NCBI GenBank assembly: GCA_977862235.1
Contig: OZ374561.1
Coordinates: 2,232,001-2,296,000 of the forward strand
DNA: 64,000 nt
Source: Dudresnaya verticillata
Lineage: Eukaryota
Direction: 5' to 3'
Part shown: in pieces, positions 20,492 through 64,000 of the stretch
Layout of the letters: every line of letters begins with the position of its first letter
Position numbering within the stretch: the stretch's first letter is position 1
Made by a program: the position numbers and the translations under genes
The notes under the pieces: generated by a model
Database searches by the model: none
Told to the model about the DNA's origin: nothing
Seen by the model: only the letters and a program-made list of their open reading frames with translations

Positions 20492-20493
20492 GA

Positions 20494-20510: not shown

Positions 20511-20624
20511 CGCCACGTCCTCGGGCGTCCACCGTCACGGATTACCTTTGCTTCCACACCCACACACAATCGATACGGTATCGTGCTCAACTTTTCCTCC
20601 CCCTTCGTGCGCGCTTCTCCCACC

Positions 20625-23473: not shown

Positions 23474-23576
23474 AGTTACAGTGCGACGATCTCCTTAACG
23501 GTTTCCATTATTCCTCGATCTTCGCTTGCGATAAACATTGTGTATTCTGCTCACGCCCCAGCACTCCAATTGTCCG

Positions 23577-30600: not shown

Positions 30601-31674
30601 CGCCTCCGCGTCGATGATGCGGAGGTCCGTTCCGACTGGAACAACCCAGTCATACTCGCGTGCGTCGCGTTCGGCTTGGATGTACCCATTGCGATCCGGG
30701 TTCTCGACGTCCCCCGGACCGCGACCACACGAGAGTGGGCTGCCGGTCTCTCCTTCGCGTATCGGGCGATCCCGTGAAATGGGGTCAGCCCCTGCAACTC
30801 GCTCTTCCAGGAGACGGTTAACGTCTGCCCGGAGGGTGCGTAGTTCGCGGTTGACTTCATCGCGTCGGGCGTGATCGCCATGGGGACAATTCCCGGAGGC
30901 ACCGGCGTCGACGCGCGTGTTAAGCGCAGCGACTTGGCCTTCGATGTCCTGTATACGGGCGTTAACGCCATTAAACTGTTCACGGCAGGTCGCCGTGAAC
31001 TGCGCCACTGCCGCGTCTACTCACTGAGCCAGGTTGTCCACCAGGACGGCGTCCTGCGAGATGCAAATCTCGCGGACCGCCGCCCTGGGGACAGTGAGTC
31101 CTGAGGCGATGTGGACGCTGGCAGGCTCGGGATTACCCGCTGCTCCGGCCGTTGGGCCTTCCGGATACGGCGGCGGAGGCGCAGGTTCCGGCGAACGAAT
31201 CGGGCTAACCCGTGGACTGCGAGGCGCAGGAGATCCGTTAATGGATACGGTATTGGCCGGACCGTCGCAAGACGGTGCGTGGCCTTGCGGATCATACGCT
31301 GTTTGATATACAGTCGGCGCCCTTTCCACAGGGGCGCTGACTGTAGACTCCGGGGTCGATGCCGACGGCGCCAAAGGTGCCGTGGCGGTCGAAGTCGGAT
31401 CGGGATAACCCGTGTAATTAGACACAGGCGTCTGTGAAGGCGTCTGTGAAGGCGCCTGCAAGACGGGATACCCCGGGGTTGAATAAGCAGGGGCCTGCGA
31501 AGGCGCCTGCGGAGCGGGATAACCCGTAGAGATCGGTTCGGGCGCCTGAAAAGGCCCCTGGGAGACGGGAGGTCCCACGTTCGCGGTCGAACTGGCGGGA
31601 GTTCCCGTGAAGGGAATGGTTGTGGCCGGCATTGCCGGCGGAGGGTCGGACGCCATTGGCAGTCCGGCGGTCAA
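27642..31674 (-). pseudogene. gag-pro-RT(N) of element B
   Basis: Pro-rich N-terminus, capsid-like LSYRTYRL..FAGDDPVPILDFL..TQRPGETESAFAMRL..FIDGL, zinc knuckle CHACYGRGHYATDC broken by an 11-bp duplication near 29270, protease VLGTGAGPNFI..APVILGCDF, RT WASPVVFAPRKDG. Confidence 0.88.
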
Positions 31675-31993
31675 AGCGCTCGCCGTCGGTTACGCGGGAT
31701 CACCCGTTCACTGGCTGTCGGCACCAACGCGCGAGCGGCTTAAAAGCTGTCCAATCTACGGGCTTGGTCCCGGATTTGGCTGCGAGTGACCTTGAAAGCG
31801 GAGGGGGCGGCGGGGCTCCGAAGTGAGCGAGCTCGCCTTGCGGCTCGAGGTAGCTGGTCTCACCATAACGCGCGTGCGTTTTGGGAGAGCCCTTGGAAGC
31901 AAGACGAAGCGGCCGACCAATCGGAAAGGTCGGCGGGGCAGGAAGAAAAGCGGGAGAACCCGACCGGACGGAGAACGCTCCAATCGGGTGGGA

Positions 31994-32011
31994 TTCTAGG
32001 TCGGGAGACCA
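31994..32011 (-). other. Primer-binding site TGGTCTCCCGACCTAGAA (probably tRNA-Tyr)
   Basis: Starts with TGG 6 nt after the LTR end; identical 18-mer at 45610 and 48795. Confidence 0.85.
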
Positions 32012-32017
32012 TAAATG

Positions 32018-32803
32018 TGTAGTGCAACCCTCCGAATGAGAGTCGCAACCAACACAACCCACTAGTCCGACGTGGGAGGGTAGCCGCGGTGACGTGTGTG
32101 AGCGCGTCGGTACGTGGTAGGGTAGAGCAAGGGGAAGGCCCCACCCAGTGTACGGACTGTAAACACACACCAAAGCCGTGTGAGCACGTAGTGAGCCAGA
32201 AGGTGGGGGCACCGGCACAACAAGCGTGTGAAAACGAAGGTAGAAAAGGTTTCAGCACCATAGGCGTACGTAGCCCAGCTCCACGATGGCTTCACTCGCC
32301 AAGCGCACGGAGGTAGGGGTACCCTAAGTGTGGAGCCGAAGCTTGGGTTTACTCGAGGAGGTCGGTCCTAGCCCCTTAACTCCCACCGCGGGCGGCGGCG
32401 CCTAGGCGGTGGCGACTAGGGCTACTGTACACTAGCAAATAAACTAACACTAGAGTACAATAAACTAACACTACAGTAGCACAGTGTACCTACTGTACAC
32501 CGACACCAGCACGCTGTAAGACGTGTAATGACGCATGCGTGTGCGCGTGTGCACGTGTCACGCGTGTTGCGCGTGTCTTGCGCGCGCTTGCGTGGCGGTG
32601 GCTGTAAGGCGGCGAGTGCGGCCCTGTAACGGCGACGGCGGGGGAAAGCCCCAAGGGTGGGCGCGGGCCCACTGTAGTGGTCAACCATGGTCCAATGGGA
32701 ATGCCCAGCTTGGCGGCGCGCGTCGCGGACGCGCGCGAGCCATCACGCGTAGAAATGGGGTTATCAACCCCCAGCTCGGAGAGGGCTTGGGCGTTGCACC
32801 ACA
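32018..32803 (-). repeat. 5' LTR of element B (786 bp)
   Basis: Minus-strand ends TGTGGTGCAAC...GTTGCACTACA (10/11 inverted repeat), followed by the PBS. Confidence 0.85.
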
Positions 32804-42987: not shown

Positions 42988-43860
42988 TCACAACAGAAGC
43001 CATTTGGTCTCCCAATTTGGATAGCGTCGCGGCTCCTTTCCTAGCCTTTGTTGTTTCCTACTATCTGAACCCCTCACACGCCCCCGTTTCCGACTCTCAG
43101 CAATCTCCCTCACTTCCGCGGCATCCTCTTTCGCTAACATGTACCAATCCTCCGATTGCGAAAGTACGCGAACCACTTCCCCGTAGCTCGCGGCTCTAGG
43201 ATTTGACTTCCTTTGGCCAATTTCTTCGTCAATAACGAAGTTGTGCAACTTCATCGCTAGATAAATAACTCGACAGTCCACATCAACAGTAAACTCAAGC
43301 CTTTGTAATATCCTCCATTTCGCAACGAGCATCCCAACTCCTTGTTCAACGTGCATGCGAAGCGACGAGTGCCAAAAATTAAAAGCGTCTTCCCAGAACG
43401 TAGCCAAAGCCGCAGAAAATGGCGTTATTAGCCATTCTGCGCACATGTATGCTTCATCACCAGCTATCCAGAACCCGAGCTCTAGCAATCCGGAAGACAA
43501 AAATTGTCCGAGTTTAGAAACAGCGTGAGCAAGAGAGTCGTGAGTACTTCCAATGCATATCACAGAAAAAGATAAAAAGCGGTAGTTAGAATCAACTGTA
43601 GCCTGAACGGGCATGGCATAATAGGACTTTCTGCACCAATAAGCTGCAGGGCTAAGATCATTTTCTGGCTTCCTGATCTTAACAGCAATCCCATCAAGGG
43701 CCGCAACGCAACCCGAAAGCGGGCTGGCCGGCTTTCTAGACATCGTAAATGCCTCGGATGATTCCAGCAAGGCCCCCCTCGTAGTCGGTATTCCAGGCAG
43801 GTCTAAACAGCGATTGAGTGCAACGCAGGTGGAGTGGTATACCTTGTAGATTGTGGACTT
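42988..43860 (-). pseudogene. PIF/Harbinger transposase (DDE_Tnp_4), C-terminal part; N-terminus displaced by LTR insertions
   Basis: GCVAALDGIAVKI, YWCRKSYYAMPVQATVD, GSTHDS, IAGDEAY, LITPF, FNFWHSSLRMHVEQGVGMLVAKWRIL, LHNF. Confidence 0.9.
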
Positions 43861-44761
43861 TGTGGTGCAAGGGGGGTGAGCCCCTTTTTCGCTGAAAGCG
43901 GAGCAACAAATACGTCGACCGACGGAGAAACCGCCACCGGCGCTCACCACCGCCGTTGGCGCGCGAACACGTGATCGACGGCTCACTGGGGTGCGCGCGC
44001 ACGTTGCGCGTCGCGCGCCATACGGGCACTGTACAGTGATGGGCCGATATGGCGCCCCGGGGCACTGTAACACGGATCTAGACGGGATCCGGATCCAGTA
44101 TCCAGATTGGCTATCTGGATCGCCTGCGCTATAATGTACGCCCCTGTAAGGCTGCGAGTGCTCGCATTGCTGGCCCGGATCCGGATGGGGATCGGGATCA
44201 GACAAGTATCGGATTAGATCAAGGGCGCACGCTCTACAGTACACGCGCGTGCACAGCTGTAAGGCACACGCGTCTACGTGTGTGTAAGCGCCCACGCAGA
44301 AGGTTGCGCGGCAACCTCTCAGGCGCGCGGCTGCATACGGTGGGTGATCTGTCAGACGCGCCTCGGGACGACACGTGTCCCGAGTTCCCGCGCTACGCAC
44401 ACGCACCGCCGTCGCCGCACCACCGTTCTATACTTATGTAAGCCGTCCCAGACGTAGCAGTAAACGCCCGGGCAAGCCGGCGTTGGTCCAGACTTCCCCG
44501 TTCCGCACGCACGTACCCTACCGCTGCCTACGGCCTAAGCGTCTACCTCCCGTGCTTCCACGTTCATCACCGTCCTTGACGTGTTTCCTTTTTGTTCCCT
44601 TTTGTTCTTCCTTTCCGCCTCGGGCGTCTGCAGTCCACCAAAGGCGTGTCAACTGCTCTACCACAAGCCGCCCAAGGCGAGGCTACTCACCACCACGGGC
44701 GTCGCTACCCACCGAGCCCCGAACTGCTCGGCGGTGTTCCGTCCAGGACGTTTGCACCACA
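43861..44761 (+). mobile_element. Solo LTR (901 bp), family F
   Basis: Perfect 10-bp terminal IR TGTGGTGCAA...TTGCACCACA; flanked by GACTT at 43856-43860 and 44762-44766; homologous to 58972-59882. Confidence 0.92.
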
Positions 44762-44765: not shown

Positions 44766-45608
44766 TGTGGTATAGACGCTATCCGCGAGACGACTCCGTG
44801 GTCTACGTGAAAATAATCGAGAAATACGAATTTCGAAGTGACTCCGTGAATGCGCACGCCACGATGGCAAACGTATTACAATGCGCATATTGTGCGCGCG
44901 CCACGATGGCATTCGCATTACAGCATGCACGTGATACGAAATCGCTGACACCTCCGGACGAATCCCGAGCTGACTTCGTGATCGCGCGCGCCACGATGGC
45001 ATTCGCATTACAGTGCGCCCCCGATACGAAATCGCTGACACCTTCGTGACTTTCCCGTTGTCTCCCGCGCGTAACGACACCGGGGCCCACGAGACACGCG
45101 CACCTCCGTATGCATCGCTGGCGCACTTCGTAACCGCCACCATACGTCAGGCGACCGTTCGTTGGCACCGAGGCCGTTACGAATCATTCGAGTACGAACC
45201 GTCTCCCGCGTTGACGTGTATTCGTGCTCACGTAGTATTACTTAGCCAGTCGTCTGGCACAACCTCCGAGAGTTTCCGGTAAGCGACTAGCGCCCGGACC
45301 TCGGAGTCTTCGGTAAACGCCTGTTTCTTCGAGTTCGGTGTCTTCGTCTTCGTGACCGCGGATACGGTCGAGCCTCGCTTTCGATAGCCCCGCGCACCCG
45401 GAGTCATCCCCGGTGATCTATCGCTCGAGTTCTCCCTTCCGCACACGAATAGGTTGACACCGTGGTCCTTCGTATTGGTCGCTCCGCTCTACCATGCTAC
45501 CACCCCTTTTCGTTTCTCCGCTAGGCTACGAGGCCATTCGTCAGGCTCCGAGACCATTCCTTTCAGTGCGAGACTTCCCCGCGTCAACGTGGACTTCGTT
45601 ATACCACA
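44766..45608 (+). repeat. 5' LTR of Gypsy element D (843 bp) with ~60-bp internal direct repeats
   Basis: TGTGGTATA...TATACCACA, followed by the PBS. The repeat GCGCGCGCCACGATGGCATTCGCATTACAG...GATACGAAATCGCTGACACCT occurs at ~44894 and ~44984. Confidence 0.85.
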
Positions 45609-45609: not shown

Positions 45610-45627
45610 TGGTCTCCCGACCTAGAA
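45610..45627 (+). other. PBS TGGTCTCCCGACCTAGAA of element D
   Basis: 1 nt after the LTR-terminal CA. Confidence 0.88.
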
Positions 45628-45679: not shown

Positions 45680-48019
45680 ATGTCTCACGCTCCGAGTCGT
45701 CCCGATTCGCCGGTACCGAAACCCGACGACGTACCGATTCCGGAGCTCCCGTTGTTCGACTCGAACGCGAGTGACCGAGAACCGTTTTCTCACACTCGCG
45801 CTTCACGAATAACGGTACCCGATCTTCGCACAGACTCGCGTTCGCAGGCTCACGGGAGCCAGTTCGACCTTTCGTATTGTGGCATAGCTGTAAGACCAGC
45901 TGTGCCACGCACGCGAAGCTGTAAGACCAGCTGCGCCACGTGTGCACTGCTGTGCGCACGCTGTCAGCCGGTGGCGCCGAAGCCCCGCTGAACTGTAAGG
46001 AAGTGCGCAGTGGCACGCGAAGCTGTAAGACCAGCTGCGCCACGTGTGCACTACTGTGCGCACGTTGCCAGCCTGTGGCGCTGAAGCCCCGCTGAACTGT
46101 AAGGGAGTGCGCAGTGGCGCCCACGTGTGCACGCGTTCGCGTGTGACACTGAAACTCCCATGTAATTTCTACATTTATTGTTTTGTAGTGTACAGCACCG
46201 TCTAGTGTAAGCGGCGGTCGAACGCCCTGCTGTCCTGCGCGCTGTGCGCACGCACTCCGGCGCAGAGCCGTTGAGTGCGTGACACGCGCGCGCGCACTCC
46301 GGCGTCGAGCCGTTGAGTACGTGTGGACCGTTCCACCTACGCGCGCCCCCGGGTTACCGTTACCCGTACGCGTCGACGCGTGTTGGGGCGCGCCGGCGCA
46401 TCTCCCGGGTTGGTGCCGCCGCAGGCCCTGTAGTATATCTAGTAGTCGCCCCTCTCGGCTTCAGTAAACCAGGCAAGCCAGCCTACGCCTGGCTTTCCCT
46501 TTCTGCTTTGGGTTTCTTTCCCAGTCCTTCGCCCTACGGCTTCCCTCTTTCCCTAGCCGCCTAGGCTTTCCTTTTCCTTTCCCTACCGTCGGCTTCGTGC
46601 CGCCCCACTACTGGGACGCAGGGATCCGGCCGCTGCCGCCCGCGTACGGTACGCCCCGTGCGCGCTCAGGCTTCGACGCCGTTGATCCGCGACCGTCGAC
46701 GGCGCACGCGGCCGACACCACCGCTCTACCACCACAGCTACTACCCTTCGACGGGTCTGGGTGCGACTGATCGACCAGCGCAGCTAGACGTCAGTTCGAC
46801 CTGACGTCTATGCCACACGAATACGTACACTGCGTTGGAAATCGTTCCCTCGGATACCGTCGATCGACTCTTCTCGATGAAGGAAGTCTCCGGTGCAGAA
46901 CTACGTTTACTCTACGAAGAGTTCATCGACGCGCTTTCCACTGCGTACCGTATCACGCAGCTCTCAACTCGTAATACGCATAATCGAGTTCACGCAGAGT
47001 TCGACAATCTCCGCGCTGGCAAGGTCCGTAGGATCGAAGACTCACTCGAGAGTCTCCGGGATCTCGTCTCGGGAGTCAGCAACCGGTTTCTCGTGCTCGA
47101 GCGCAACGTATCCGCCCTAGTGGGCAAGGAGAGTCACTCGCCTCCCGTTCGCAGCTCGCACGCATTCTCGGAGGAACAGTTGAACGCTATTCGTGATATC
47201 GTGTCCGCCGCGTTACCGAAGGAAAAGACTCGAAGTCGCGAAGATCGTCCCGAAGCCCGTCCTGATCCCCGCAATTCGCCGCTAGTTCAACCCGTGCAAG
47301 GCCCGGGTGTCCAATCTACGTTACCGAAAAAGACGTTTCCGAATCAGTCTTCGCACCCTTTATCGCATCAGGCAAACGATGCCTCCGACAACCCCCGTAT
47401 CAACCCCGCAGTATTCCGAGCTTCCCTTCAACCACCGATGTCCCCCGGAGGACCCGTAATCGAAAATCCGTTATCGCTCGCGGGACCCGTGTCATCGTTC
47501 TGGCACTGGGGAACGCTCGAGCCGGGCGTCGAACCGATACCGACGCTCATCCCCGAATTCGCACGGGCCGTAAGCTATCGATCATATCGACTCACAAATT
47601 TGTCACCTCGGGATAATCAACACGAAGTCTTCCGAGGTAACAAGTCGAAAACCGTTTCCCGCATGCGTTCGATGATGCCGAGACTCGAGAAGTTTACGGG
47701 ACGCGACCCGATTAAGGTTCTCGCATTTCTTCGTGATATTCGACAAGCGCTGAACGGAGTCGGGCTCACCGAAGGAGCAGCAATTCGAACGATTTCGTGG
47801 TTCCTCGACGAGACCGCGCTCAAGGTTTATCAACACTATGCCTTCGGAGGCGTTCGTACTGGCAACCCGGTTTGCTGGTCCGCTATCGTGAACGTATTGC
47901 TACAACGATTTCTCACGGAAGACGTAATCGCTGACGCACACGATCGCGTGATTACCGCGAAGCAGAAGTCCGAAGAAACCGAGATGGAATTCGCGACTCG
48001 TCTAGAAGGCTAGGCAGAT
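45680..48019 (+). pseudogene. gag of element D, interrupted by a solo LTR (45878-46817) and truncated by element C
   Basis: Removing the solo LTR and one TSD copy joins FDLSY|TYTALEIVPSD in frame. Clearly homologous to gag of C (GPVSSFWHWG, FARAVSYRSYRL, FTGRDPIKVL, TAKQ..EFATRL). Confidence 0.88.
45878..46817 (+). mobile_element. Solo LTR (940 bp) related to the element C LTR, with an ~100-bp internal tandem duplication
   Basis: Perfect IR TGTGGCATAG...CTATGCCACA; TSD CGTAT/CGAAT (4 of 5). Shares blocks such as GGGATCCGGCCGCTGCC and TACGCCCCGTGCGCGCTC with 48020-48793. Confidence 0.88.
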
Positions 48020-48793
48020 TGTAGTATAGCTGTCAGCACACTATCAGCAGCGGCTGTAAGGTATGCTGGCAGCGCCGCACTGTAATGGTGCACACGATGA
48101 CGCCCGCTGGCGAGTCGTGGTTGGGCAGCGTGCCCTTAGTTTTTTCGTTGAATTAGTAGCGGTCGACCGCATTGCTGCCGGCAGCGGCCACGCGCCGTGC
48201 CGCACACGGCGCGCCCCTGTGACGCTCTCCGGCATCGAGCCGTTGAGAGGGCCGCTGCCCGTTACGCCCCGCGCGCGCCCACGGGTAACCGTTACCCGGA
48301 CGTGTCGACACGTGTATGGGCGCGCGCTCGCACACCTCCCGCGTTGGTGTTGTGGGGTGCACCTACTGTAGAAGTAGTCGTAGTGCACATAGTGTAGGGT
48401 ATTTAAGACCGTCGGCCATCGACGGCTCAGTAAACCGGGCAAGTAACAGCTCGCGCTGAGGCTTGCCCCCAGCCTTTTCGGGTTCGATCCCTTTGCCTTA
48501 CGCCAGCGGGCGGTTTCCCTTTTCCCCCTTGCCTCGCTAGGCTTTCCCCTTTCCTTTTCCTTTCCGTCGGCTTCGTGCCGCCCTTCGACAGGGACGCTGG
48601 GATCCGGCCGCTGCCTACCCGCGTACAGTACGCCCCGTGCGCGCTCCGGCATCGACGCCGTCGATCCGCACCTGCGGGGCGCACGCGCCCGACACCGCTC
48701 TACCAACCCCAACAGCTACCCATCGACGGGTCTGTGTGGCGGCTTCGGACCGGCAAGTATCAGACGTCGGATCGATCCGACGTCTATACTACA
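48020..48793 (+). repeat. 5' LTR of Gypsy element C (774 bp)
   Basis: Perfect IR TGTAGTATAG...CTATACTACA, followed by the PBS; interrupts gag of D. Confidence 0.92.
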
Positions 48794-48794
48794 C

Positions 48795-48812
48795 TGGTCT
48801 CCCGACCTAGAA
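48795..48812 (+). other. PBS TGGTCTCCCGACCTAGAA of element C
   Basis: 1 nt after the LTR-terminal CA. Confidence 0.88.
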
Positions 48813-48860
48813 GTCGTCGAGACCCAAGTACTTCTCGCATCGACGCGATCGAAGTAAAGG

Positions 48861-51292
48861 ATGTCGAGTCCTTCTGACCCGGCCGCTGCCGCATCGGCCG
48901 CTGCCGGAAAAGTTGAGGACGCGACGCGTCGCACCTCAATACTGAGTACCATCGGCGTCTCAGGTACTCCTCTACACGATGTGAGGCTCGAGCGGAGGGC
49001 CGCGCTGCAAAAGGCCCTCGCCGGGAGTCTGGTCTCGGTGGCCGACCTCCAGCTGCTGTATGAGGAGACCATGGACTCGCTAGCCGAGGTGTACGACCAC
49101 CTTACAGCTTCAATAGCTGCGGCGAAGGCCGACGGCCAGCAAGACCTGGACACGCTTCGACGCGGTCCTTTGGCGTCCATCGAGGACGGAATAACCCGGT
49201 CACAGGGGCTCCTCGATGAGCTACGCCGCCGCGTTGAGTTGATAGAGTGCGCGCCGACGCGGCAACGCCAGCGGGCTACGGGCCCGTCGTCGGCGCAGCG
49301 CTCTCCGCCGCGACCGCAGTCACCAGCGGGTGCAGTTCAAGAATTGGCCACTGCCATACTTGCCGAGCAACGAGCTCGATATCGCTTTCCTTCACTACCG
49401 CCATCTCCACCGAGGAGTGCGGCGGGGTCGCACCATCCGAGTGGGGACCCCAATCCGTTCTACGCGGTCGACCCCAGGTTGCTCCAACAAGCCCTCGACG
49501 GGCAAAACACAAATGGGGGACCGACCCCCCAACAGCACGAGGGCCCCGTCTCTGCCTATTGGCATTGGGGCCCACTCATGGCAGGCATCGAGCCTTTAAC
49601 CACGTTGGTGCCAGAGTTCGCTAAGGCGATCGACTACCGCTCGTACCGTCTCGATGACGTAGATCAGCGGGACAATCAACAGCAGGTATGCAGCGGCAAT
49701 ACTGCGAAGATTGTCAGCCGCATGAAGGCCCTGATGCCCCGGCTCGACCGGTTCGACGGCAAGGAGCCTATCCGCCTGCTAGGTGTGCTTCAACAGCTAC
49801 GCCAAGCATTCAATGGCGTTGGACTATCCGAAGGCGCAGCGGCGCGTGTGGTGTCCTGGTTCCTCGATGGAACCGCGTCAAAGGTGTACGCGAGTCACCT
49901 GTCCTCTGGGGTGCGCACAACGCAGCGCGGCACCCCACCCTGCTGGGCCTCGGTGGTCAATACCCTCGTCGAGAGGTTCGTCACGGACGACGTCATCGCA
50001 GACCCCCATGACCGGCTGACCACCGCCAAGCAGAGGGACGCCGAGTCCGAGCTTGAGTTCGCTACTCGCCTCAAAGGGTATGCGGACGCCTGCGCCGGTG
50101 TGTACTCCGATGAGAACTTGACGCATCCGTTCCTTCGGGGCCTGCTGCCCACGACAAGACCCGCAGTGGCGGAGAAGGTCAGGCAGCTGCCTATGGTCGA
50201 ACAGACCAATTTTAGTACCGTTCGTCGGATTGCCCATAGCGAGGGCACAACCTACCGCGCCCGTTCGGCAAAGGCAGCGCAGCCTACGAACACCTCAGGG
50301 CGCGACAGGTCAGGTGGCAGCTCGGCAAGCGGCCGTACACTGCTCATCGAGGGCCCACCAAGCTATCCCAGCGGGGACGTTACTATCGACAACACAATGC
50401 TGGCACAATGCTGGTGGACCCTGACGCCGACGGGTTCGAACCCGTGATGGTCGCACCCGAGCTATCGACAGCCGGGCCGAGGCCGTTGAGATCCTCGACA
50501 TTACAGGACGCATCGACGCGGTCCTACCCAAGCGCATACCACCGCTCACTCCAACGCAGGAGGCGATGGCACGCGCAGTCATCCCTGATTGACAGGGATG
50601 GTACATCTGCTAGTTCTGCCGTGAGGTCGGTCACATCATGTATTCGTGCCCGTACCTCACGAAGGAACAGCAGGCATACTGCGCGTATGCGACCTGCAAC
50701 CATCGAATGGAAACGCAGCCGCATTCGCGCAATATGCTCCAACAGCTCATCGAAGGGCGCGCGCCAGCGGGCGCAAGGACAAGGAACCCCGCACGGCGCT
50801 ACGACGCGCCGCGGGGTGGGAACCGACGCTTCGACGCGAGAGGTCCCCCGCAGCGCATGGGCGCACCAAGGTACCGCGGAGAGCCACAGGGGTACCGCGG
50901 GGATCGTCGAGACCCACGCCGCGAGTACCGCCAAGGCGACGCACCACGGTTCCTGCTGCGCGATAAGCGGGTCGGCTTTGATGAGCCCGCCGGCCGTCAA
51001 CCTCAGGCATCGACCTCCGAGGGCTGACCCGCGCCGCGAACTGCTTCGAGCAGTTATGACGGTGCAGGAGCACACAGGCCTCACCACCGACGAGTGGCTT
51101 CCGCAAGCGCTCGATGCGCGACACAAGGGAGAAACAGCCAGCGGGCAGGGAAGCGATTCCCCTCTCCTTTTTGACACGCCTCCGCGATTGACGCGAGGCG
51201 CCTCAGGGGTTACGAAACACCCAATCGGAATCGAGTACGAAAGTTCGGATTCCGAGGATAATTCTGACCGGGTCGATCCGGAAAAAGAATAA
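48861..51292 (+). pseudogene. gag of element C (frameshifted), with zinc knuckle
   Basis: 528-aa ORF with capsid-like motifs. C*FCREVGHIMYSC knuckle near 50608-50650 and an RG-rich tail in other frames. Confidence 0.85.
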
Positions 51293-51306
51293 AGGCGGCG
51301 CCGCTC

Positions 51307-54300
51307 GTGCGGTCGCGCGCATCGTCTTGTCCAACACCAGACCCACCATCCCTTCCACCTTCGACGGCGTTGGGGGCAGCGAGCCCCCACGTCGGGCGCA
51401 GCGGCGCTTCGAAGGACACGAGCGACGTCCCGGTCGACGGGACGTCGTGGGCGGCGCGTACCAAACCGTCCTGGCCGCCGCGGCGTCGACGCAAGCGACA
51501 GGCCAGGCGGAAAGGGCGCAGCTCCCCAACGGCGGGGCAGGCGGTACCCGAAGCTCGACGCGAGGGTACCGGGGTTCCATGCATCGACGCAGAGCCGGCC
51601 ACTACCCCCGATGGGTACGTGTGCCTCCTGTCCTCCGAGATTTACCGAGTGTCCGTGTCCCTCGGTGCGGACCCGCGGGTTATGATATCCCACACCATCG
51701 CGGTGGACACCGGCTCCGGGTACAACCTCATCGCTCGAGGTGCCCTGCCCGCAGGCTGGGAGAAAAACACGTCAGAGATCGATTCCGCGCCACGCCTGGC
51801 AGGCGCCGACAAGACTCCGCTGAGGCTGTCCGGCGTCGTCCACCTCTTGATGAGGTTGGGGAACACGACGTTCCGCATGCCTTTCATCGTCGCCGAAACG
51901 CTCGCGGTCGACGTACTGATAGGCACGCAGTTTATCAACGCGCACGTGCGCGGAATCGACGTCGAGTTGAGAAGGCTGACGCTGAGGAAAGGAGGCTCGG
52001 TGCCCATCCTCAGCCGCAGGAACCCTAGCGAGGGAACCGGTCCGGCAACGCAGCCGAAGAACCCATCGAAGGGTTTGTCGAAGAAGCACAAGCGGGAGCT
52101 CCTCGATTGGGATCACGATACCCACACCATACGCCTCGCTAGGCAGGTGGTTGTCCCAGCCTACTCGCAGAGGCTCGTCTCGGTGACGTCGGGGGCTAGT
52201 GGGTTAATCCACACGGAGCCCAAACCCTCGTTGCAGTTCCGCCACGGCGTGAGACTGACCAACGGGGTGCACGACATCGAGTCGGGGCGACCCTTCGGGT
52301 TTATCTTGGGCAACTGGACGGACAAAGCCCGGACCCTACCGAAGGGTACCGTCATCGGATACGCAGCTCGAAACCCGCTCGCGATCTTGACACCCGATCG
52401 CGAAGTCGCGGATTCGTTTTCCAAGGTGCTCAAAATCTCCACGTTACGTGAGCACGACGACTCGAAGTCACCCCAAGAATCCGTATCCACGAAGGAAAAA
52501 CCTCTTACGAAGGGCGCCGCGACGGCAGCAGCCGAAGCCAATTCGAGTTCCCGCGATTGGAAAGAACGCGTAGACCTTCGAACATACCCGATGAAACTAT
52601 GCGAAACGAGGTCCTCGAGATGCTACGTAAGCACGAATCGATGTGGAACGGAGACCTCACGATCACAGCCACGGAGCATCGGATCGATCTACAACCCGGG
52701 ACTCGCCCTATTCGTTCGATGCCCTACCGTCAAGGGCCCGCAATACGTGAAATCGTCCGTAACGAGATCGACAGTATGCTCGAAGCCGGAGTAATCGAAT
52801 CAGCCACCTCGGAGTGGGCGTCCCCCGTAGTCCTCGCACCGAAGAAAGACGGAACACTTTTTTTTGCGTAGATTACCGAAGATTCAATACGAAGACACTA
52901 TCCGAGGCGTACCCGCTTCCCCGGATGGAAGATTGTATCGATTCACTCGGAGACGCTTCGATTTTCTCGACACTCGATTGTGACAGCGGATACTGGCAGA
53001 TTCCGGTTGCCCCCGAAGACCACGATAAGACTACGTTTACTTCGTTTCTCGGAACTTATCGTTATCTTCGTATGCCCTTCGGTTTGAAATACGCGCCCGC
53101 TACGTTTCAACGTGCACTCGATATCATTCTATCCGGAGTCCGTTGGCAGTGCTGTCTCGTCTACCTCGATGACGTGATCGTTTTCTCCGCGAATCTTCGA
53201 GAACACATCGCGCATCTCGATCAAGTCCTCACGCTACTTCGTAATTCCGGGGTTTCCCTCAAAATAAAGAAGTGCTTCCTTTTCCGCAAGCGAGTCGACT
53301 ATCTCGGACACGTAATTTCCCCGGGGAAGCTTAGTATGGCTGAGAAGAGCTCCGAGGCATTCCGATACGCGAAGTTCCCGAAGACCCTCACGCAAGTCCG
53401 TTCGTTCCTCGGCGCGTGTAACGTATACCGAAGATTCGTGAAAGACTTCGCGAAAATTGCGCGCCCGTTGACGAACATGACACGAAAAGACGCGGATCCT
53501 GACTACGAGAATCCCACGGAGGATCAGGTTACCGAATTCGAAACGTTCAAACGGAAGCTGGTGTCACCGCCGATACCCCGGTTACTGCAACTCGGGAAAC
53601 GCAACATCATCGATACGGACGCGTCTGCGTATCGACTCGGGTGCGCGTTGCTACAGGAGCAAGATAAAGAAGAGTTCCAACCGGTGGGCTACTGGTCTTA
53701 TTCGTTAAACGATGCCGAGAAGAACTACTCCGCAACCGAGCGCGAATGCTACGCAGCCGTATGGGCGGTTACTTCGTTAGTCCGTATATCGAAGGGACCC
53801 GGTTCACCGTACGTACGGACCACGACGCACTCCGCTGGCTTCTTTCTCTCACTGATTCGTCCGGGCGACTCACGCGATGGCGGCTGCGCTTAGCCGAATT
53901 CGACTTCGAAATCGTGCATCGCCCCGGTCGCGTCCATCAGATTCCCGTTGCCCTCTCACGATTGCTACTTCCGCATCGCGAACACCCCGCAATCGACGAC
54001 GAAGTGCCTCCGTTTGACTCGGATCACAACGCCGCAAAGCACGAAGCAAGCTTCCCAAACGACGTCGCGAAAACTATCGAAAACGCAAGAGACCCGGTTC
54101 TCATCACTACGAGATCTCTCAAACTTCAAACGAACGTTACCGCGATTCGCCACGACTCCACGCAGACGACCACGCCCGCAACACGGGTAATTCGAGGCGG
54201 CACTACGCAAAGACCCACGGAGGTCCCGAAAAATAACGCAGGTCACCATCCGCAAAGCCGCGAAGGCTGCACCCACGCACAAGACGAAGCACTACGTGAG

Positions 54301-55995
54301 GAATACGCAGGACAAAACGAGGTCTACGATGACTGCGATTTATGGGACGATATCGATGACGAGGATCCCTTTGACCTTTATCGAATCGACCCTAACGAAG
54401 AACCGCGTAACCTAACCGATGTCAAGCCCGTAGACATACCCGCGCCGATTACTGTATCCGAGATCCTCGAGGGACAGCGTATTGATTCATTCTGCCAAAC
54501 GGTGCAAGCACGACAATCGAAAACAAAGGATAGTGTCTTTCACGAAGATGGAGACGGTCTCCTGCGACGAACGTATCCGACAATTCCGAACTTAACGCAG
54601 ATCTTATTGCCCGAAACGCTCCGACCCCGGTTACTTACGCTAGCGCACCATTCGTTACTCGCTGGCCACCCGGGGCAGAATCGAATGTTCTACTCATCTC
54701 GTGAAACGTATTACTGGTCTTACATGTCTGCCGATATCGCATCTACGGTCCGAAGTTGCAAGCACTGCGCACGAAATCGGATTCGCTTACGAAGGAACCT
54801 TCATCGCTTGAAGCTCTCCCCAGCTACGCGCCCACTCGAATCGGTCGCGATTGACATCTTAGGCCCGTTTGCCACGTACGAAAGCCGGACGCAAGTTCAT
54901 CCTCGTGATTATGGATCAATTTACGAAGTGACCCAGGTGGCCACACTACGAGTAATAACCGCGTATCACGTGGCCGTTGCCTTTTGCGAAGTTTGGATAT
55001 TCAAGTATGGACCGCCAGCCTCGGTGCTCTCGGATAACGGGAAACAGTTTACTTCGAAGTTCTTTCAGGGCGTCTGACGCTTACTCGGGTTATCGAACGA
55101 GTTCACCTCCGCATATCATCCGCAAACGAATGGACAAACCGAACGATATAACCGGACTATCCTCGCGATGCTTCGTAACTACGTGAACGACCACCAAATC
55201 GATTGGGTCCGCTACGTCTCCGCGTTAACGTCTTCGTACAATTGCCACGTTCATCGGTCTACGAAGACAACTCCGTTCAATCTCGTTTTATCGCGACCGC
55301 CGCCCGAATTCACCGTGAAGCATCGCTCCCGTAAGCACCGACCGAAACCTACGGAGGACATTCGAAACGATTTCATTAAACGACTCGATGTCGCAATCAC
55401 CTCAGCAAGAGCTTCGTTACAACGTGTGCAAAACCGATACAAGCGCGACTTCGACAAAGGCATCCGACGGACGAAGAGTCGCGTCAAACCCGGATACTAC
55501 GTGTTCCTCGATACCCACGATGGGAAAACGAAACTTCCGAAGTTGAAATCCCCCGCGGAGGGGCCGTACAAAGTGCTCTTCAACGATACGCGTACACTCA
55601 TAATCGATCGCAAGGGCCTCGTTGAACGCGTCTCCGCGGACCGCTGCATCTACGCGCCACCACCTACGAATTCGCAAGCATCGATTACGCGATCCGAAGA
55701 GATAGCATAAAAGGTCAACGAAGGTCCCGAGTACGTGGTAGATCGTATCCTCGATCACTCCACCGACGAGGACGGGAAATTCGTGTTTCGTATCAAGTGG
55801 GACGGCTACGCGACACCTACGCGGGAACCTCGTACGCACGTGCCCGAAGAACTCGTTTCACGCTACTTGGCAAGGCTTCGAAGCCAAGCGGACCCGCGTG
55901 ATCCCGTGCTACTCGCCCACGAATGGCTCTCCGGCTGGGACCCCGAGTGGTTCCGTGGCCCCGACTTCGTGATCCGCAACCCGCAGCCCGAATAA
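51307..55995 (+). pseudogene. Gypsy pol (protease, dUTPase-like segment, RT, RNase H, integrase, chromodomain); C-type to ~52.4 kb, probably D-type thereafter
   Basis: VDTGSGYNLI, WASPVVLAPKKDG, LVYLDDVIVFS, DTDAS, VRTDH, AIDILGP, SDNGKQF, YHPQTNGQTERYN, chromodomain EYVVDRILDH..FRIKWDGY; multiple frameshifts. Confidence 0.93.
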
Positions 55996-57327
55996 CGCCT
56001 ACGCCCACTCGAGTTGCGCGGCACCCGAAGCTCTTTACACGAATGGCCCCGGCGCCCACTACGCTCTTGCATCACGTGCTGACTGCGCCAGCGCTCGATT
56101 GCCCCGGAGCATACGTTTGCATGGTACCGCTACGCGCCTCTCGTGAACCCCACTTCGTGATACTCGTCTCCGTCTTCCGCAACGCGCCTTCGTCGCGCAC
56201 GACCACAGCCCCGACACACACGGTTGCCTCGGAGCAGATGGCCACCACCACGCACATGGCGCTACCGCGGCTGCGCACTTCGCCCCGTGATCGCCGTCTT
56301 CGCTTCGCTAGACCCGCACCGGATTGCGTTCGCCGCCCCACTTCCCGGCCGCGCGCCGCACGACACCGAGGTCCTCGGAGACGACACGCCACCGCATCAA
56401 CGATACGCGATCACGAAGCCAATGCCTCCACGAAGTTGCGCTCCACGCCGTCGGGCGGTGTCGACCACCACCGCCCCAACTCAGCGCCCCTCGTGAAATC
56501 CGCAAAGGCGCACCGCGCGCACCCGGTTGCACCGCGGCTCTCGCATGACAGGAGCTGAAACCGCGACGGACGGACACGGTGACCTATAAGTAACTTGTCA
56601 TACGCGCCTGACGTCATACTTCGAGGCCGATGCCACCCGCAACGCGCACTTCGACTTCGCAACCCGCGCCTCACTTGCGACACGGAGCTTACCTGTTACG
56701 ACGCGCCTTCGCAATGAGCACGGAGTCCTCGTTGTCGCCAAGCGCAATCCTCTCGCATGGCCTCGGCTTCCCATTATGAATACGTTCCGCCCGCACCGAT
56801 GCGCCCCGAAGCAGCTCGTTCACGACAGCCCCGGATCTCACGCAACTTGCCCTGCGCGATCATCACAACACCCGCACAGATCTCCGAGGAGCGCGTATCC
56901 GCAACCCACCCCCCCAAGCACGTTGGCGCGGACGCCTTCGTCTTGAGGAGGGGGCCGTGCACGCATATCGCACGAAGTCTCGATGACTCAACTCCGCGAA
57001 GGAAACACGCGTAATATTATTATTAATCAACGTCACACGCATCACGAAAAACGAAGCCGTGCCACGAACAAGTCCAGATTCGCACACTTGAGCACGAAGC
57101 TCGTTTACGAGAAGCTACGAAGCTGAAGCTACGATGCTAACAACTACGTGACTATCACCACGAGGCAAAAGAAGAGTCGAGAAAGAAAAACGTTTACTCG
57201 AGACGATACCACGAGACCGAGACCCCGCCACCGTGAGCTCCGAGAACAAGGAGCTCGATACCGAAAACGAGAAACCACGCAGCTACGAAGCTAAAAGAGA
57301 ACGTCTCGGTTCTAACACTACGTACAA

Positions 57328-58971
57328 TTACGAGCGCCCATACGGGTTCGCGGAGTCGTAAGGCGGGTTATCACGAGGATCGTTTCCGTTTTCATATCGA
57401 GTCACGCGAAGGAAGTTGGGCGCATACGGATCCGATGTCTGCGATTGTCCGTCGCAACCGCTGGGTCCGAAGCCCGAAGGGCCTCCGGAGCCAGACCCGT
57501 AACGCGGAGCATCGTAACTCGGGTAACCGTAATCTTCGCGCCGACGCTTCCCGCTCAACTTGAGGTCCCGAATACGATGACGAAGGTCCGCTATCTCCGC
57601 ATCCCGATCACGAAGCTGCTTACGAAGGAGACTCAACTCCGTGACCGCGCGAAGGAAACTTCCGCCGAGATCGTCCAGCAGTTGCCGAAGAGTCCCATCG
57701 GGGGAGATGCCCGCTTCGCGACACGCGTCGCTCACGGAGTCGAGACTGCGAATATCCGTAGGACAGCACATCTCGAGACTCGCGATCGAAGACTCCGAAG
57801 CGCTCGGCACCAACGCGACAGCCCCGGTGCCAAGAGATGACCCCGGAGTCAGCAACGACGAAGGAACCGGAGCTACAGAACGAGGAACGCGCGGCAACGG
57901 ACCAACCTCGCCTCCGATGGCACGAACCGCGGCACTCGGATGCGAAAACGGATCAACTCGCGGACCACGCCCTCCTCGTGAAGGACGGTTATGGCACCAA
58001 TCGAACCAGGCCCTGGAGCCCACGTCGTGTCCGACTACTTGGGACCACTGTCCCGTCGGGAAATCGCGACGAGTCGACTGGAGCTCCCTCCGATCCGAAT
58101 CCTCGATGGCAATCGCGAGTATCTTCGTGAACTGCATCGTGCAATCCGAGCCTCGGAGCGAAAGATCCGGATACCCGCCATCCTCGGAGAACGACTTCGA
58201 CCAACGATCACGAACGAAACTACGCAACGAAGCATCGAGCACCCACACGTATTGACGCTGCGTGACATCCGAAATCAACGCGCGACCAAGCTCGAAGCGA
58301 TATTCGGAATCCCGGAAACGCACGAAGCACTTCTTCGTAGGTTCCGCAAACAGGTCGACCACGAGCCCGAAATAACGAATCACCCTCGGAGGTGGCACGA
58401 CTAAGCCCGCGGGGGCCCGAATACACGAAGCATCGAGCCAGAACGAACTCGCAAACATGCTCAGAGGCACGCGGTCATCGAGACGCTAATTCGTATCCAC
58501 GCGATCAGGCATCGAGCCCGCGCCACGGAATAGCGCCCAGTCTCTACCACCGATGTGCACTCCGAGGATGCGCGAAATCGAGTCTACGTGACGCCATACG
58601 TTTCCCGCGGCGGACTCGAACTCCGGATAATCACGAAAGCGAGTAACCGCAACCAACGGAGAATCCACGGAGATACCCGCACCCGGTGCCAGGAGCACGT
58701 GCGCACACGCATCTACGTAAGCAACCTCGTCGACCGTGGTCACGTAGGAGACATCGCACGGAAGACCCATCGGAGTCGTATACACGGGGCCACGGGGCCA
58801 GAATACGTGAAAGACTCCGGCTCCATTATCATCATGACCCTCGCAAAGTGCACGAAAACGAGCGAGATCTGGACGAACACGGCCATCGTAGGCAGCAACC
58901 TCTTCGTGAGTAACTCCGGAGATCGCGAACTCGTCCCACGCGAAGTACAGCTGCGCAGAAGGAAGCCTCGG
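57328..58971 (-). pseudogene. Antisense accessory ORF downstream of pol (family D); one in-frame stop at 58486-58488; 5'-truncated by an LTR
   Basis: ORFs 58486-59007 and 57328-58470 are in the same frame. Shares motifs with the element A antisense ORF and ends with a coiled coil and KRRR. Confidence 0.72.
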
Positions 58972-59882
58972 TGTAGTGCCAGGGGGGTCCCCCATTTTCG
59001 CTTTCAAGCGGGTTGATATGCAGCGTCTACCGACGGACGACCGCCAACGGTGCGCTCAACCCGCCCGCGGCGCAAACACGTCACCGACGCATGCCGCTGG
59101 CCACTTGGGCCAGAACGGCTCGCTTGGCGTGCAGACCGCACGCCTGAACCCGGGCACTGTACGGCGCCACGCGTACGCGCATGGCGCAGAGGCGGGAACG
59201 TTCGCTGTAAGCGTGGCCCGAATCCGGATCCAATCGGGATCCCACATCGGGATCAGACATCGGGATTAAGGGGTGTAAGGCACGCGCCTGTAAGCCTGGT
59301 GCATCCGCACGGCTGGCCCGAATCCGGACTGGATCGCGATTGGTGCGGATCGAGATCGAACGTGCCATGGGGCGCATGCGGCTGTAAGGAAGTAATCCAC
59401 GTGTAGGTGTAAGGACTCGAACGGGTAAGCTACGCGTGATCTGTCAGGAGCGCGGCTGCATGACGGACGGATCTGTCAGACGCGCCTCGGGACAACACGT
59501 GTCCCGAGTTCCCGCGTGACGCGTACACCCGCGTCGCCGCCGCTAGGTAATTCTATACTTAGTTGATCCGTCTCAGACGTCATAGTAAACCCCGGGAAGC
59601 CGGCGTTGGTCCAGACTTCCCCGTTCAGCACGTGCGTACCCTACCGCTGCCTACGGCTAAGCGTCTACCTCCCGTGCTTCCACGTCTCTACCCGTCTTCG
59701 ATGTGTTTCCTTTTTGTTTCTTCTGTTCTTCCTTTCCGCCTCGGGCGTTTACAGTCCGCCCAAGGCGAGTCAACTGCTCTACCACAAGTCGCCCAAGGCG
59801 AGGCTACTCACCGCCAAGGGCGTCGCTACCCACCGAGCACCGAACTGCTCGGCGGTGTTCCGTCAACGACGTTCGCACTACG
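58972..59882 (+). repeat. LTR of family F (homolog of 43861-44761); no matching TSD and no PBS
   Basis: Starts TGTAGTGC and ends GCACTAC(G). Region ~59470-59880 is closely similar to ~44346-44761. Confidence 0.85.
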
Positions 59883-62800
59883 GAAGACGGTAACGTTCTC
59901 GCTTGATTCGCAGAGATGCTCGACGATAATGTCGGAGGTATCTTCAGTCGTCTACAGACGTTGGTGGAAGATCGGGACGGTGCCCTTCAAGGACTCCGTT
60001 CCGACCTCGACCGTCTGATGATGAACCCCAACCATGGAGTAGATGCTCAGCAGCCAAAGACATTGACGGTCCATTCCCAGTCGGAACTGAGTTGACGCGA
60101 ACGCTTTCAACGATTAGCAACCCGCTTAGAGCGACTGGAAACCGCCAAATGGCGCCAAGGGCCGCCGTCTGATGACGATAGTTCCGAAGAAGACCGTCGC
60201 CGACGTAAAGATCGTAAGAGACGGGGCAAGAATCGCCGCACGTCGCGTCATGGACGGAAGAAGAACCGTCACCGACTAGGGGACTCATCCTCATCCTCTT
60301 CGGACACGTCTAGTGAAGACGGGTCAACAGGCTCTTCGTCAGACGATGACGACCACGTGGCTCACGGCAGTGCCATGCGACCCCGCGGAAAGCGATACAG
60401 GGGACTGAAGGAGCTAAGCCCCTCCAATCCTCTCTTCGACCAGTTGCTATCGTACCGCACATACCGTCTCCAATATGTGGGACAGAAGCGCTCTGGACGC
60501 GAAACCAGGAAGGTCAAAGACCATATCAAGCGACTCGAGTTAAAAATGAAGGACGCTGCCTTCAACGGCAGCGACCCCGTCATGGTTCTCGAATTTTTAA
60601 CGCGGTTCGCGGATGAAGCGGACACGCTAGAGATGAGAGAAGCACAAGCGTTCGTCGCGCTGCCGTACTTCTTAGGAGGTACGGCAGCCACGCAATTCCG
60701 CTCCGTCAAATCGACGTCCTCTCGCCACCGCGGCGGCGTATCATCGTACCAGGAGGCGGTGCACTACCTCCTCCGCACGTACGCCACGCCTTCGGCGATT
60801 CGAGACGCTGTCCTCGCCCTGGGGTCGACTAGTCAGAAGCAGGGCGAAGACGAGACGACTTACGGCATGAGACTCGCCGGCGCATGTATTCGTTGCGGTA
60901 ACGTTTATCCTGAATGGGAAAAGATGACACTGTACATCGATGGGTTAGACCCGACGATCAGGTCCTTAGTGGCCCGCTTCCGCGAAGAAGCGCAGAGGGC
61001 GGAGTTATCTTTTGAACGTTTAGTCCACTTCGCGCAAGATGAAGGTGAGACGCAACGCGCAAGACACGGCAGGACCGGCTCGACGTCAGTAAGACGGGAT
61101 ATAATAGCCCCGGCCGAAGCCGCTCGCGCATTGCACCCCGCCATTGGCGACAACCGAACGGTTCTACGTCAACATACGAGGGGCACGAAGCCTGCCGCAC
61201 GCGCTATATAGCGGAGTCTTCCGTTGAGTTCCGTGATGTCACCTGTCATGCGGACGATATGGAAACACACGCCGATGGCGATCTCTATTTGGCCGATGAG
61301 CAAACGTCAGTGCCAACGTCAGCGTTACCGACGGACAGCTACGTCGAAGACGAGGACACAGGGGCAATAAATCCTACACTCGCCTTTGGGCGATCCGTTG
61401 TTCCTGCGCCACGCGTCCCGTATTCGGAGTATGCTCCCCACGTCCATCGGGCGAGGCCAGGTTGGCAAGATAGGAGTCCGCTCCGTCAAGACGCTCGCAG
61501 ACAGTTGATCTGTCATCAGTATTATGCCCGTGGCCGCATCGCACCGGACTGCTTCCTCCGCATGAGCGAGTATATGAAAGCGATCGCCAACTACGAAGGC
61601 TTAACAGACGCCGAGATGGCGGGGGTCCCCGCTGATGCGTACACTCGGTACAAAGAACGCGTTGCGCGCGAAGCAGCACGCCGTGCAGCACGACCACCGT
61701 CGCCACGGGGCGGACCTATGCCGCATGCAGCAGAACGTCATCTGACGGTGATCAATCGCTAGACAGCGCCGCTACAACCGCCGCAGGCGAAAAACTAATG
61801 AGGGTACCAACTCCTGACACGGGGTGCCGCACCAAGTAGAGAGGCTTCGGCCTCGGGTGCTGACACGGAAGGAGGACCCGAACGTAGTTAACAAATACGC
61901 TGATGGGCGGGTAGATTCGTCACAGACGTCCTTGAAGCGCCCCTGGCGTAGGTACCAGCCCCCACAAGCCCGGGGACAGTTATTCGTAATGGCCAAAAGG
62001 AACTACAAAGTATACGCCGACCTGGGCGTAACTGTAGGTACCTTGGCACGTAAACATACTGTCCTCGACACGGGGGCTGGTCCGAATTTCATTCGCATTG
62101 ACGACATTCCGCTAGAAGCGCGACCACGGATCGTATCCAAGAGTCTCCCCGTCATATCAGACATTAGCAACAAGGCGATTCAGACCCGGGGTACTATCGA
62201 CTTAGTCGTACGTCTCGGACGAAGGGTTGTCAAGTTGGAGTTGATCGTCTGTGAACGGCTCGCTGCGCCGGTCATACTTGGTTGCGACTTTTGCGACCGC
62301 TTTGTCGAAGCGATTTATCCGCGGAGTCGCGAGATTGAGTTGGATGACGGGACCCGTGTCCCTTTAACGCACCGCCTGCTGCGCTGGCCCCCGTCGTACC
62401 CCCCGTTTCCAACGGAACAAGAGTACGGCACGGCTGAAGGGCGAACGTCGCCCAAGATACGCGTTGCGGAACGGACGATCATCCCGCCGCAGGCGCAAAA
62501 GTGGATCTCGGTGACGACCGAGCGAGCAGGGGTCATTACCATCCAACCGTTTGGAACGTTATATGATCGGCAAGCTTTGGCCGTTACTAACAGGGTCGCT
62601 CAAGTAGAGCAGAGTGTTCCGGATTCTCGTCGCCAACTTCTCCCCGCGCCCGCAAGCGCTCGTTAAAGGACAAGCCGTCGCTACCGCGTTGCCACATCCC
62701 ACAGCAGTGTTCCCCAGTCACATAAGTCTGGCCGATGGCCTAGGTATCACCGAGGAACAGGCAGTGGAGGAGGAGGCGAATCAGGATTTCCGTTTTCAAA

Positions 62801-64000
62801 CGAATGATGGGGTAACGGCGCAGCCGGATACATTCGCTAAGTCGATCGCAGCAACTGTAGCTAAATCTCCTTCAGTGGACGAGTTGGACCTGAGTCATCT
62901 CTCAGCCGAACATCAAGGACGGCTGAAAGAGATGCTGCGCAGGTACTCGTCGATGTGGGACGGTTCATTAGGAGAAACCGCAACCACGGAGCACTATATT
63001 GACCTGCTTCCCGGCTCCAGGCCGATTTCATCCCCACCTTACCGCGCTGACCCAAAACAAAGGCAACTCGCTCAAGCGGAGGTGGATCGCATGTTGCGTC
63101 AGGGGGTTATCGAACCCGCACAATCTCCATGGGCGTCGCCGGTCGTCTTTGTTCCCAAGAAGGACGGTACACTCCGCTTCTGCGTTGACTACCGTCGCTT
63201 GAACGCGGTAACGGTACGAGGTACGTACCCTCTCCCGCGAATCGATGAATGTATTGACAGCCTAGGGGAAGCGAACGTCTTCACCACCCTAGACTGCAAT
63301 AGTGGTTACTGGCAGGTGCCCATCAATCCGCGAGATCGCGACAAGACGGCGTTCACGTGCCATGCCGGGTTGTTCCGCTACAAGCGTATGCCCTTCGGAC
63401 CTACTAACGCACCGGCCACGTTTCAACGGACCCTCGATATCCTGCTTGCTGGTTACAAGTGGCGCTCATGCCTCGTCTACCTTGACGATGTGATCATCTT
63501 CTCGAACGATATCGACAGTCACTTCCGTCATGTTTACGAGATCCTTTCGACCTTGCATCGGGCCGGGGTGACGTTGAAATTAACCAAGTGCGACGTCTTC
63601 ACCCCGACCGTCAACTATCTAGGCCATGTGATACGTCCGGGACGATTAGGAGTAGACCGTACGGTCACAGCCGCGTTACGCGAAGCCAAGCATCCGCGGG
63701 ACCAGAAGGAGTTACGGAGCTTTCTCGGATTGTGCAACGTCTATAGACGGTTTGTATCGCGATACGCGCACGTCGCCGCTCCCCTCAACAAATTGTTGAG
63801 GAAAGAGCAAGACTTCCAGTTACAACCGTTCACCGAGGAGCAAGCTCGGGCATTCAGCACGCTTGTCGAAGCGGTGATTCACCCGCCCATCCTGGCGTTG
63901 CCACAGCAAGGACTACCGTACTCCGTCGATTGTGACGCGAGTGAATACCAAGTTGGCTGCGCACTCTTTCAAACGCAGCCTGACGGCGAACGGAAGCCGC
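59883..64000 (+). mobile_element. Gypsy element E (related to B): gag, protease, dUTPase-like segment, RT-RNase H running off the window end
   Basis: KELSPSNPLFDQLLSYRTYRL (also in B), VLDTGAGPNFI, WASPVVFVPKKDGTLRFCVDYRRLN, LVYLDDVIIFS (~63472), DCDASEYQVG. Confidence 0.9.

Follow-up and report, generated by a model that had tools for sequence, protein, structure and literature searches.

Why does one short DNA word recur along the whole length of a retrotransposon family, in coding and noncoding sequence alike, when neighbouring families carry other words? The question is raised by a stretch of 64,000 nucleotides from Dudresnaya verticillata (contig OZ374561.1, positions 2,232,001 to 2,296,000 of the forward strand), which was analysed as a whole and is called the window here. 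Its first 14 kb contain eukaryotic host genes and the remainder is a nest of Ty3/Gypsy elements. Their reverse transcriptase (RT) has a relative in Chondrus crispus (53%), which, with the Gracilariopsis chorda relatives of their accessory protein, points to a red-algal host. In one family of this nest, family D, the word is YYWCGDAG, a degenerate and asymmetric 8-mer with the hexamer ACGAAG as its most common core. We consider it probable that this word is a selected cis-motif, whatever its reader. That it is a family-specific signal read by the element's own antisense protein, in a manner resembling VANC and the VANDAL transposons without belonging to them, has in our judgement about an even chance of being right.

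The D word and its sequence context

A sequence-only reading of the window had drawn attention to ACGAAG and its complement CTTCGT in family D, claiming about 40 copies where uniform composition predicts about 3. We find 41 between positions 52,480 and 58,910 (28 ACGAAG and 13 CTTCGT on the forward strand), among 90 in the whole window, and an order-0 Markov model predicts 3.0. The seven copies it placed in the D long terminal repeat (LTR) lie exactly where it put them, and its three in D gag (46,914, 47,622 and 47,729) and about two in the C segment (48,571 and 50,659) were likewise recovered. With Markov models trained on the 52,480 to 58,910 region itself, the expectation rises through 3.0, 5.8, 10.5, 20.9 and 37.3 at orders 0 to 4. 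ACGAAG is the top-ranked hexamer of the region at orders 0 to 3, and the excess at order 2 has a p of 8e-13 (2e-9 after Bonferroni correction). The order-4 model absorbs the excess because its 5-mers CGAAG and ACGAA belong to the motif. The LTR holds 7 hexamers where models trained on pol and the antisense open reading frame (ORF) predict 1.4 (order 2) or 2.7 (order 3).

The same reading treated the hexamer as the family signature, a view that needs refining, since the unit is the degenerate 8-mer. The commonest 8-mers in D are TCACGAAG (11), CCTCGGAG (10), TTACGAAG (7) and TCACGTAG (7), which YYWCGDAG summarises. Of the two extensions said to be frequent, YACGAAG occurs in 27 of the 41 hexamer copies, and TCACGAA, counted as TCACGAAG, in 7. 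In 8,875 bp of D we count 68 copies of the 8-mer (7.7/kb), as against 0.5-2.0/kb across the other five window segments. Among 95 related loci that we took from public collections (designated by L numbers), the 91 longer than 2 kb have a median of 0.81/kb and a maximum of 2.3, and the host genes of the window are not enriched (0.7/kb). The copies in D are balanced in orientation (34 sense and 41 antisense) and follow one another at about 128 bp, without a regular period. The D elements and the sequences nested within and beside them are as follows.

44,766-45,608, + strand: D LTR, TG...CA, 843 bp; 7 hexamers and 13 YYWCGDAG
45,610-45,625, + strand: primer-binding-site-like sequence starting TGG; an identical sequence follows the C LTR
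45,878-46,817, + strand: inserted C-type solo LTR with CRTCGA present and the D motif absent; flanked by a near-matching 5-bp duplication
46,818-48,019, + strand: gag of D, truncated by the inserted C element; composition of D type, motif sparse (3 hexamers)
48,020-52,300, + strand: sister family C, with LTR (48,020-48,793), gag and protease; carries CRTCGA and almost no D motif, and so serves as an internal control
52,300-55,900, + strand: D-type pol in several broken frames, with RT, RNase H, integrase and a chromodomain-like end; 20 hexamers and 23 YYWCGDAG
55,901-57,327, + strand: spacer separating pol from the antisense ORF; 11 hexamers and 12 YYWCGDAG
57,328-58,971, - strand: D antisense accessory ORF fragment, one frame with one internal stop, its 5' end cut by an E-type LTR; 10 hexamers and 16 YYWCGDAG
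58,972-64,000, + strand: inserted family E element with LTR, gag, protease and RT; carries CGYC-N3-GRCG, and the D signature stops at its edge

Hexamer density per kb is 8.3 in the LTR, 7.7 in the spacer, 6.3 in the antisense ORF, 5.8 in pol and 2.5 in gag. The earlier statement that the word is densest in the spacer and the antisense ORF is thus only weakly true, because densities across the D parts differ little. D-type composition spans the LTR (44,766-45,608), gag (46,818-48,019) and approximately 52,300-58,970. Pfam matches to RVT_1, RT_RNaseH and Integrase_H2C2 follow one another within 52,763-55,074 with a protease-like segment upstream, which is the Ty3/Gypsy gene order. Likewise, the D LTR has TG...CA ends and is followed by the TGG-initiated sequence, matching the layout of an LTR retrotransposon; the window contains no second D LTR. 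A Pfam Chromo domain was found in family A, and the alignment of D with that ORF extends through residue 491, reaching 55,866. Near 52,300, between protease and RT, C-type composition gives way to D-type within one open frame (51,268-52,794), so this D copy is a chimera, possibly a template-switch recombinant of sister families. By the composition that they share with the D LTR, pol and the antisense ORF are assigned to D within this nested, chimeric copy.

Amino acid content, codon usage or local tandem repeats could in principle have produced the word, for D favours CG-containing codons and one local repeat (57,111-57,139) includes it. This artefact is largely refuted, and we give it hardly any credence. 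In the D coding segments (5,178 nt) YYWCGDAG occurs 38 times and ACGAAG 26 times, against 10.2 and 7.3 expected from amino acids and codon usage; conditioning on the next base as well raises the expectation for ACGAAG to 11.0. The motif occupies all six frame and strand classes there, and the excess extends to the noncoding LTR and spacer. The flanks of the 41 hexamer copies are unrelated (on average 6.2 of 24 positions identical), and a tandem-repeat origin of the D motif was rejected.

A second alternative invokes context-dependent mutation or protection with no selection on the motif: prolonged non-CG methylation followed by deamination, or a family-specific RT or repair bias, would strip non-CpG cytosine and leave CpG words flanked by A or T, ACGAAG being the commonest among them. 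D does carry a bias wider than the word itself, with gain of CpG and loss of CHG. Its CpG density is 124 per kb compared with 101, its observed/expected ratio is 1.56 for CpG, 0.76 for CA and 0.78 for CC, and CAG/CTG is its most depleted trimer (-0.97 log2). Non-CG cytosine is widely lost, the C/T ratio being 0.72 vs 1.25 in CHG and 1.0 vs 1.29 in CHH contexts. Around the CpG, G is avoided at -3/-2 and C at +2/+3, and the fitted D matrix holds little information and approaches HHHCGDDD. The D gag branch is twice as long as that of C. PMC8566409 cites methylation in Gracilariopsis chorda as biased to non-CG sites. General background bias, the explanation that the sequence-only reading had itself set against its observation, fails to account for the counts at order 2, although an order-3 model explains about half of them and leaves an excess (p 6e-5) that is not significant once corrected (Bonferroni 0.13).

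Nevertheless, we regard mutation bias without selection as unlikely. The bias is missing from C, the sister family, and from A and E in the same nest. The two flanks of the D word are coupled asymmetrically over 8 bp: the odds ratio for YYW with DAG is 2.1 (p 2e-6) and for TCW with DAG 3.0, both strands counted, whereas the YYW with DAG coupling is absent from the controls (1.4 in other Gypsy segments, p 0.11, and 1.2 in host genes) and the palindromic pairing of CTH with DAG is not favoured in D (0.95). The whole of the CpG surplus falls in sites that differ from the motif at no more than two positions (63.5 vs 37.0/kb, a partly circular comparison, since the motif was derived from D), and CpG sites further from it, at three mismatches or more, show no increase (60.7 vs 64.0 per kb). 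The G of CGDAG is enriched even though it would be a target of CHH decay on the opposite strand. Finally, the gapped palindromes of A (9 bp) and E (11 bp), described below, are not readily made by a local bias.

Motifs of other families

The proposal of a second family signature paralleling that of family A is borne out by a diagonal table of motifs against window segments. D has YYWCGDAG at 7.7/kb, A has CCG-N3-CGG at 7.4, E has the paired CGYC-N3-GRCG at 4.6 and C has CRTCGA at 9.1, and in the five segments other than its own no motif exceeds 2.5/kb. ACGAAG ranks first among hexamers in none of the 95 related loci. C and E thus have motifs of their own, and the phenomenon is more general than had been seen. 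All four window motifs contain CpG. C and D share one nest and have sister gags (59% identity, support 100/100), yet differ in motif.

The family A elements comprise two features.

19,460-28,000, - strand: family A element with LTR region, antisense ORF and pol; CCG-N3-CGG, 63 copies
20,292-23,168, + strand: family A antisense accessory ORF, 958 codons from stop to stop; a clear family member whose core was modelled

Family A has 63 copies of its motif against 6.0 expected, about one per 130 bp, and exceeds the codon expectation in both pol (16 vs 2.0) and the antisense ORF (24 vs 3.9). In the form (W)CCG-N3-CGG(W), commonest as CCGTTACGG/CCGTAACGG (17), it is the strongest signature in the window. 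Family A is the best candidate for a binding test, its antisense ORF being long and open. A separate E-related LTR-gag-protease segment (28,000-32,800, segment B) abuts the family A pol; it contains only one copy of the A motif, which therefore marks a junction near 28 kb. Under the same codon control the E motif occurs 8 times against 1.4 and the C motif 14 times against 6.8. In E (58,972-64,000 and 43,900-44,761) the two arms are complementary in every case, with 12 CGTC..GACG, 15 CGCC..GGCG and none of the 27 mixed.

D's nearest RT relatives are L081-L086 (clade support 100/97), and ACGAAG is not their top word. CRTCGA is raised in L081, L082 and L084 (4.9-5.4/kb), and L084 has CTTCGAAG; the D word may therefore derive from a clade-wide CNTCGANG palindrome, as these sequences suggest. 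The gag and pol frames of L087 and L090 are open, and both loci carry CTC-N6-GAG, a motif with no fixed CpG (18 vs 2.3 and 18 vs 2.1 expected). Both are sited among contigs of bacterial bin G001, and we infer an algal origin for them. Bins G001 (L081-L091, L096-L114) and G002 (L084) hold many algal-type Gypsy contigs, several with intact frames, which are likely host contamination. No related loci were found in viral contigs. CGAGGA, GATATA and CCTTGC were also considered as family hexamers and were lost under codon control.

Another explanation takes the words for structural signals that would serve packaging or reverse transcription by folding genomic RNA or single-stranded cDNA into small hairpins; the D word would itself form a loop or a mini-hairpin (C-GNA-G). 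In L087, L089, L090, L009, L027, L034 and segment B, inverted repeats of 4 bp that match perfectly across a 4-nt gap are in 3.1-3.7-fold excess. Their arms are strictly complementary and co-vary, with two compensatory pairs among the 18 sites common to L087 and L090, and their spacers are near-symmetric (TTCA/TGAA, for example, in both orientations). In D itself, CGDAG is found at 26.6-31.7/kb across pol, spacer, antisense ORF and LTR. Fourfold sites in the inverted-repeat arms of relatives were conserved above background in 12 of 14 paired comparisons, with p<0.05 in 2, and 6 of 9 controls also gave an odds ratio above 1.

However, the flanks of CGDAG in D are complementary no more often than expected (59 vs 61.1) and do not pair, which led us to reject the GNA mini-hairpin, and D lacks the excess of inverted repeats seen in the relatives. 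Both orientations are used, and none of 16 sequences showed a sense-strand bias of G-T over A-C mismatches (lowest p 0.06); sense-strand RNA hairpins were rejected for want of such a G-U bias. Structural signals are in our view a decidedly improbable source of the words.

Two other mobile sequences and one host gene of the window may be mentioned here. A DNA transposon-like unit of 2.2 kb (17,285-19,461) has 211-bp terminal inverted repeats of 95% identity, and a DDE_Tnp_4 (Harbinger-type) transposase fragment (42,991-44,427) is split by an E-type LTR. The host gene at 1,084-4,527 encodes hemerythrin, CHY zinc finger, RING and zinc-ribbon domains, a layout that we take to be that of the plant BRUTUS/HRZ iron-sensing ubiquitin ligases.

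Antisense proteins as candidate readers

Antisense ORFs downstream of integrase link into one divergent protein family of 36 ORFs, including that of A, and the family profile finds 887 clusters at E<=0.001, with Gracilariopsis chorda among the sources of its members. Some of the proteins end in basic runs. Three members have, relative to the matched RT, the orientation opposite to the usual one (L027:4346-5476, L050:250-849 and L009:17254-19167) and probably come from neighbouring nested elements.

Neither the D nor the A antisense ORF has a Pfam match, nor does any of the 60 family members scanned, and from 17 aligned cores there came only 4 hits, each single, weak and to an unrelated Pfam family. 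The model of the family A core is confident and mostly helical (pLDDT 88, pTM 0.88). Searches of PDB, PDB representatives and BFVD gave it no fold match at E<=0.001 (best Z 5.5), a result that does not of itself show the fold to be new, and the structure searches returned no known DNA-binding fold. No VANC-like fold was found in PDB or BFVD, whose VANC content is not established, and a search of the ESM Atlas yielded only leads, at or under 0.90. The alignment of the algal core shows no conserved Cys pattern. A partial sequence match to a solved structure, an unrelated enzyme (E 3.5e-4), was set aside as unsupported by the fold searches. ICFDPPY in the A antisense protein, considered for its likeness to an adenine-methyltransferase motif, was also rejected: the alignment does not conserve this stretch, and helices dominate the model.

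The element's own antisense protein is a candidate reader, a proposal to which we assign roughly equal chances of being right and wrong. The protein would recognise YYWCGDAG on double-stranded DNA and, once bound, keep cognate copies active against host silencing. Copies with more sites would then transpose more, in a form of selection among element copies, and sites would build up at synonymous and noncoding positions, about every 130 bp. Protein and motif would diverge jointly, giving each family its own word. Alternatively, the motif could be selected and yet read by a host factor, either a transcription factor or a reader of unmethylated CpG, different for each family, with the antisense protein doing something else. 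The CpG common to the four window motifs, the families that have an antisense ORF and no detected motif, and the failure of the antisense core to match a known DNA-binding fold would all suit a host reader. Conversely, the change of motif between sister families fits a co-evolving, element-encoded reader better, the host genes of the window lack enrichment, and CTC-N6-GAG of L087 and L090 has no fixed CpG; we think a host reader quite unlikely.

Several observations weigh against a selected word read by the antisense protein, in addition to the loss of non-CG cytosine and the order-3 result given above. D was studied from one copy, which is degraded and chimeric. Its antisense ORF appears to be a broken, distant member of the red-algal Gypsy antisense family, and the link is weak: in searches of about 7,200 ORFs, hmmsearch with the family profile gave position-consistent matches at E 0.008 and 0.002, hhalign a probability of 31% (E 5e-4), and blastp a resemblance to the L113 ORF (E 0.003). 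The match lies over the conserved block P-x-G-x-x-V-x-x-P-x-V-x-x-Y ... E. At least seven families (L061, L065, L001, L028, L035, L046 and L041) have an antisense ORF and no detected motif. A codon-controlled scan of about 18,000 dyads, covering gag-pol alone for the loci with one representative per family, left 5 of 29 families or segments above a Bonferroni-level cut-off (D, A, L009, L087 and L090), and the coding segments of C and E do not pass on their own. Moreover, the co-variation of arms in E and in L087/L090 is not predicted by a protein reading two independent half-sites.

Known systems and implications

VANDAL/VANC is a sequence-specific anti-silencing system of Arabidopsis Mutator-like DNA transposons, in which VANC proteins bind family-specific motifs of 8-9 bp (Hosaka et al. 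2017, PMC5735166). The algal elements and VANDAL/VANC share short family-specific motifs that are amassed in the cognate element and differ between related families, and a fast-evolving accessory protein encoded by the element. They differ in that D is an RT-bearing LTR retrotransposon of a likely red alga and that its motif is dispersed in single copies through coding and noncoding DNA, whereas VANDAL motifs lie in noncoding tandem arrays. VANC has DUF1985, whereas the algal antisense protein has no match to Pfam, to DUF1985 or to domains related to the Plant Mobile Domain. On the algal side, binding and demethylation are putative.

Antisense ORFs also occur in plant Retand/Tat Gypsy elements, where they have a TRP28 domain; according to PMC11963269 their function is unknown and DNA binding has been proposed. 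Like the algal ORFs, they lie between pol and the 3' LTR and are conserved across families. The algal ORFs, however, have no TRP28 (PF04195) match, and their lineage bears a chromodomain. The Retand interval between pol and LTR contains family-specific tandem arrays, and the passages on Retand mention no dispersed motif along the whole element. In Plant Mobile Domain modules (MAIN/MAIL; 10.1101/2024.09.27.615353), transposon-related proteins and short DNA motifs oppose silencing, and PMD-A is encoded by retrotransposons. The pairing of a transposon-related protein with a short DNA motif is similar, but those motifs sit in host promoters and Pfam scans gave the algal protein no match to the domain. 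We found no report of dispersed family-specific motifs, or of this antisense family, in red-algal retrotransposons, in a literature search that left subscription journals mostly uncovered and had bioRxiv supplements outside its scope.

Taken further, these observations suggest, tentatively, a self-recognition code of red-algal Gypsy elements. Each family would carry its own word of 8-12 bp along its whole length, at synonymous and noncoding sites, read by a co-evolving antisense protein of new fold that shields cognate copies, and in some families the word would be an inverted repeat of fixed geometry with co-varying arms. Such a code would mean that LTR retrotransposons had arrived on their own at a system like VANC, one in which proteins and motifs form natural pairs by the hundred. 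Recognition of self by a family word has so far been shown only for plant DNA transposons, and Gypsy antisense accessory ORFs are without known function to date (PMC11963269); with a target word predicted family by family, that question can be tested directly. Even if the reader is wrongly identified, the motifs have a practical use: they show to which family a nested fragment belongs and where junctions lie. If it is right, the antisense proteins would make up a large family of DNA readers that are sequence-specific and have no matched fold, and their elements would provide a case of selection on synonymous sites across a retrotransposon.

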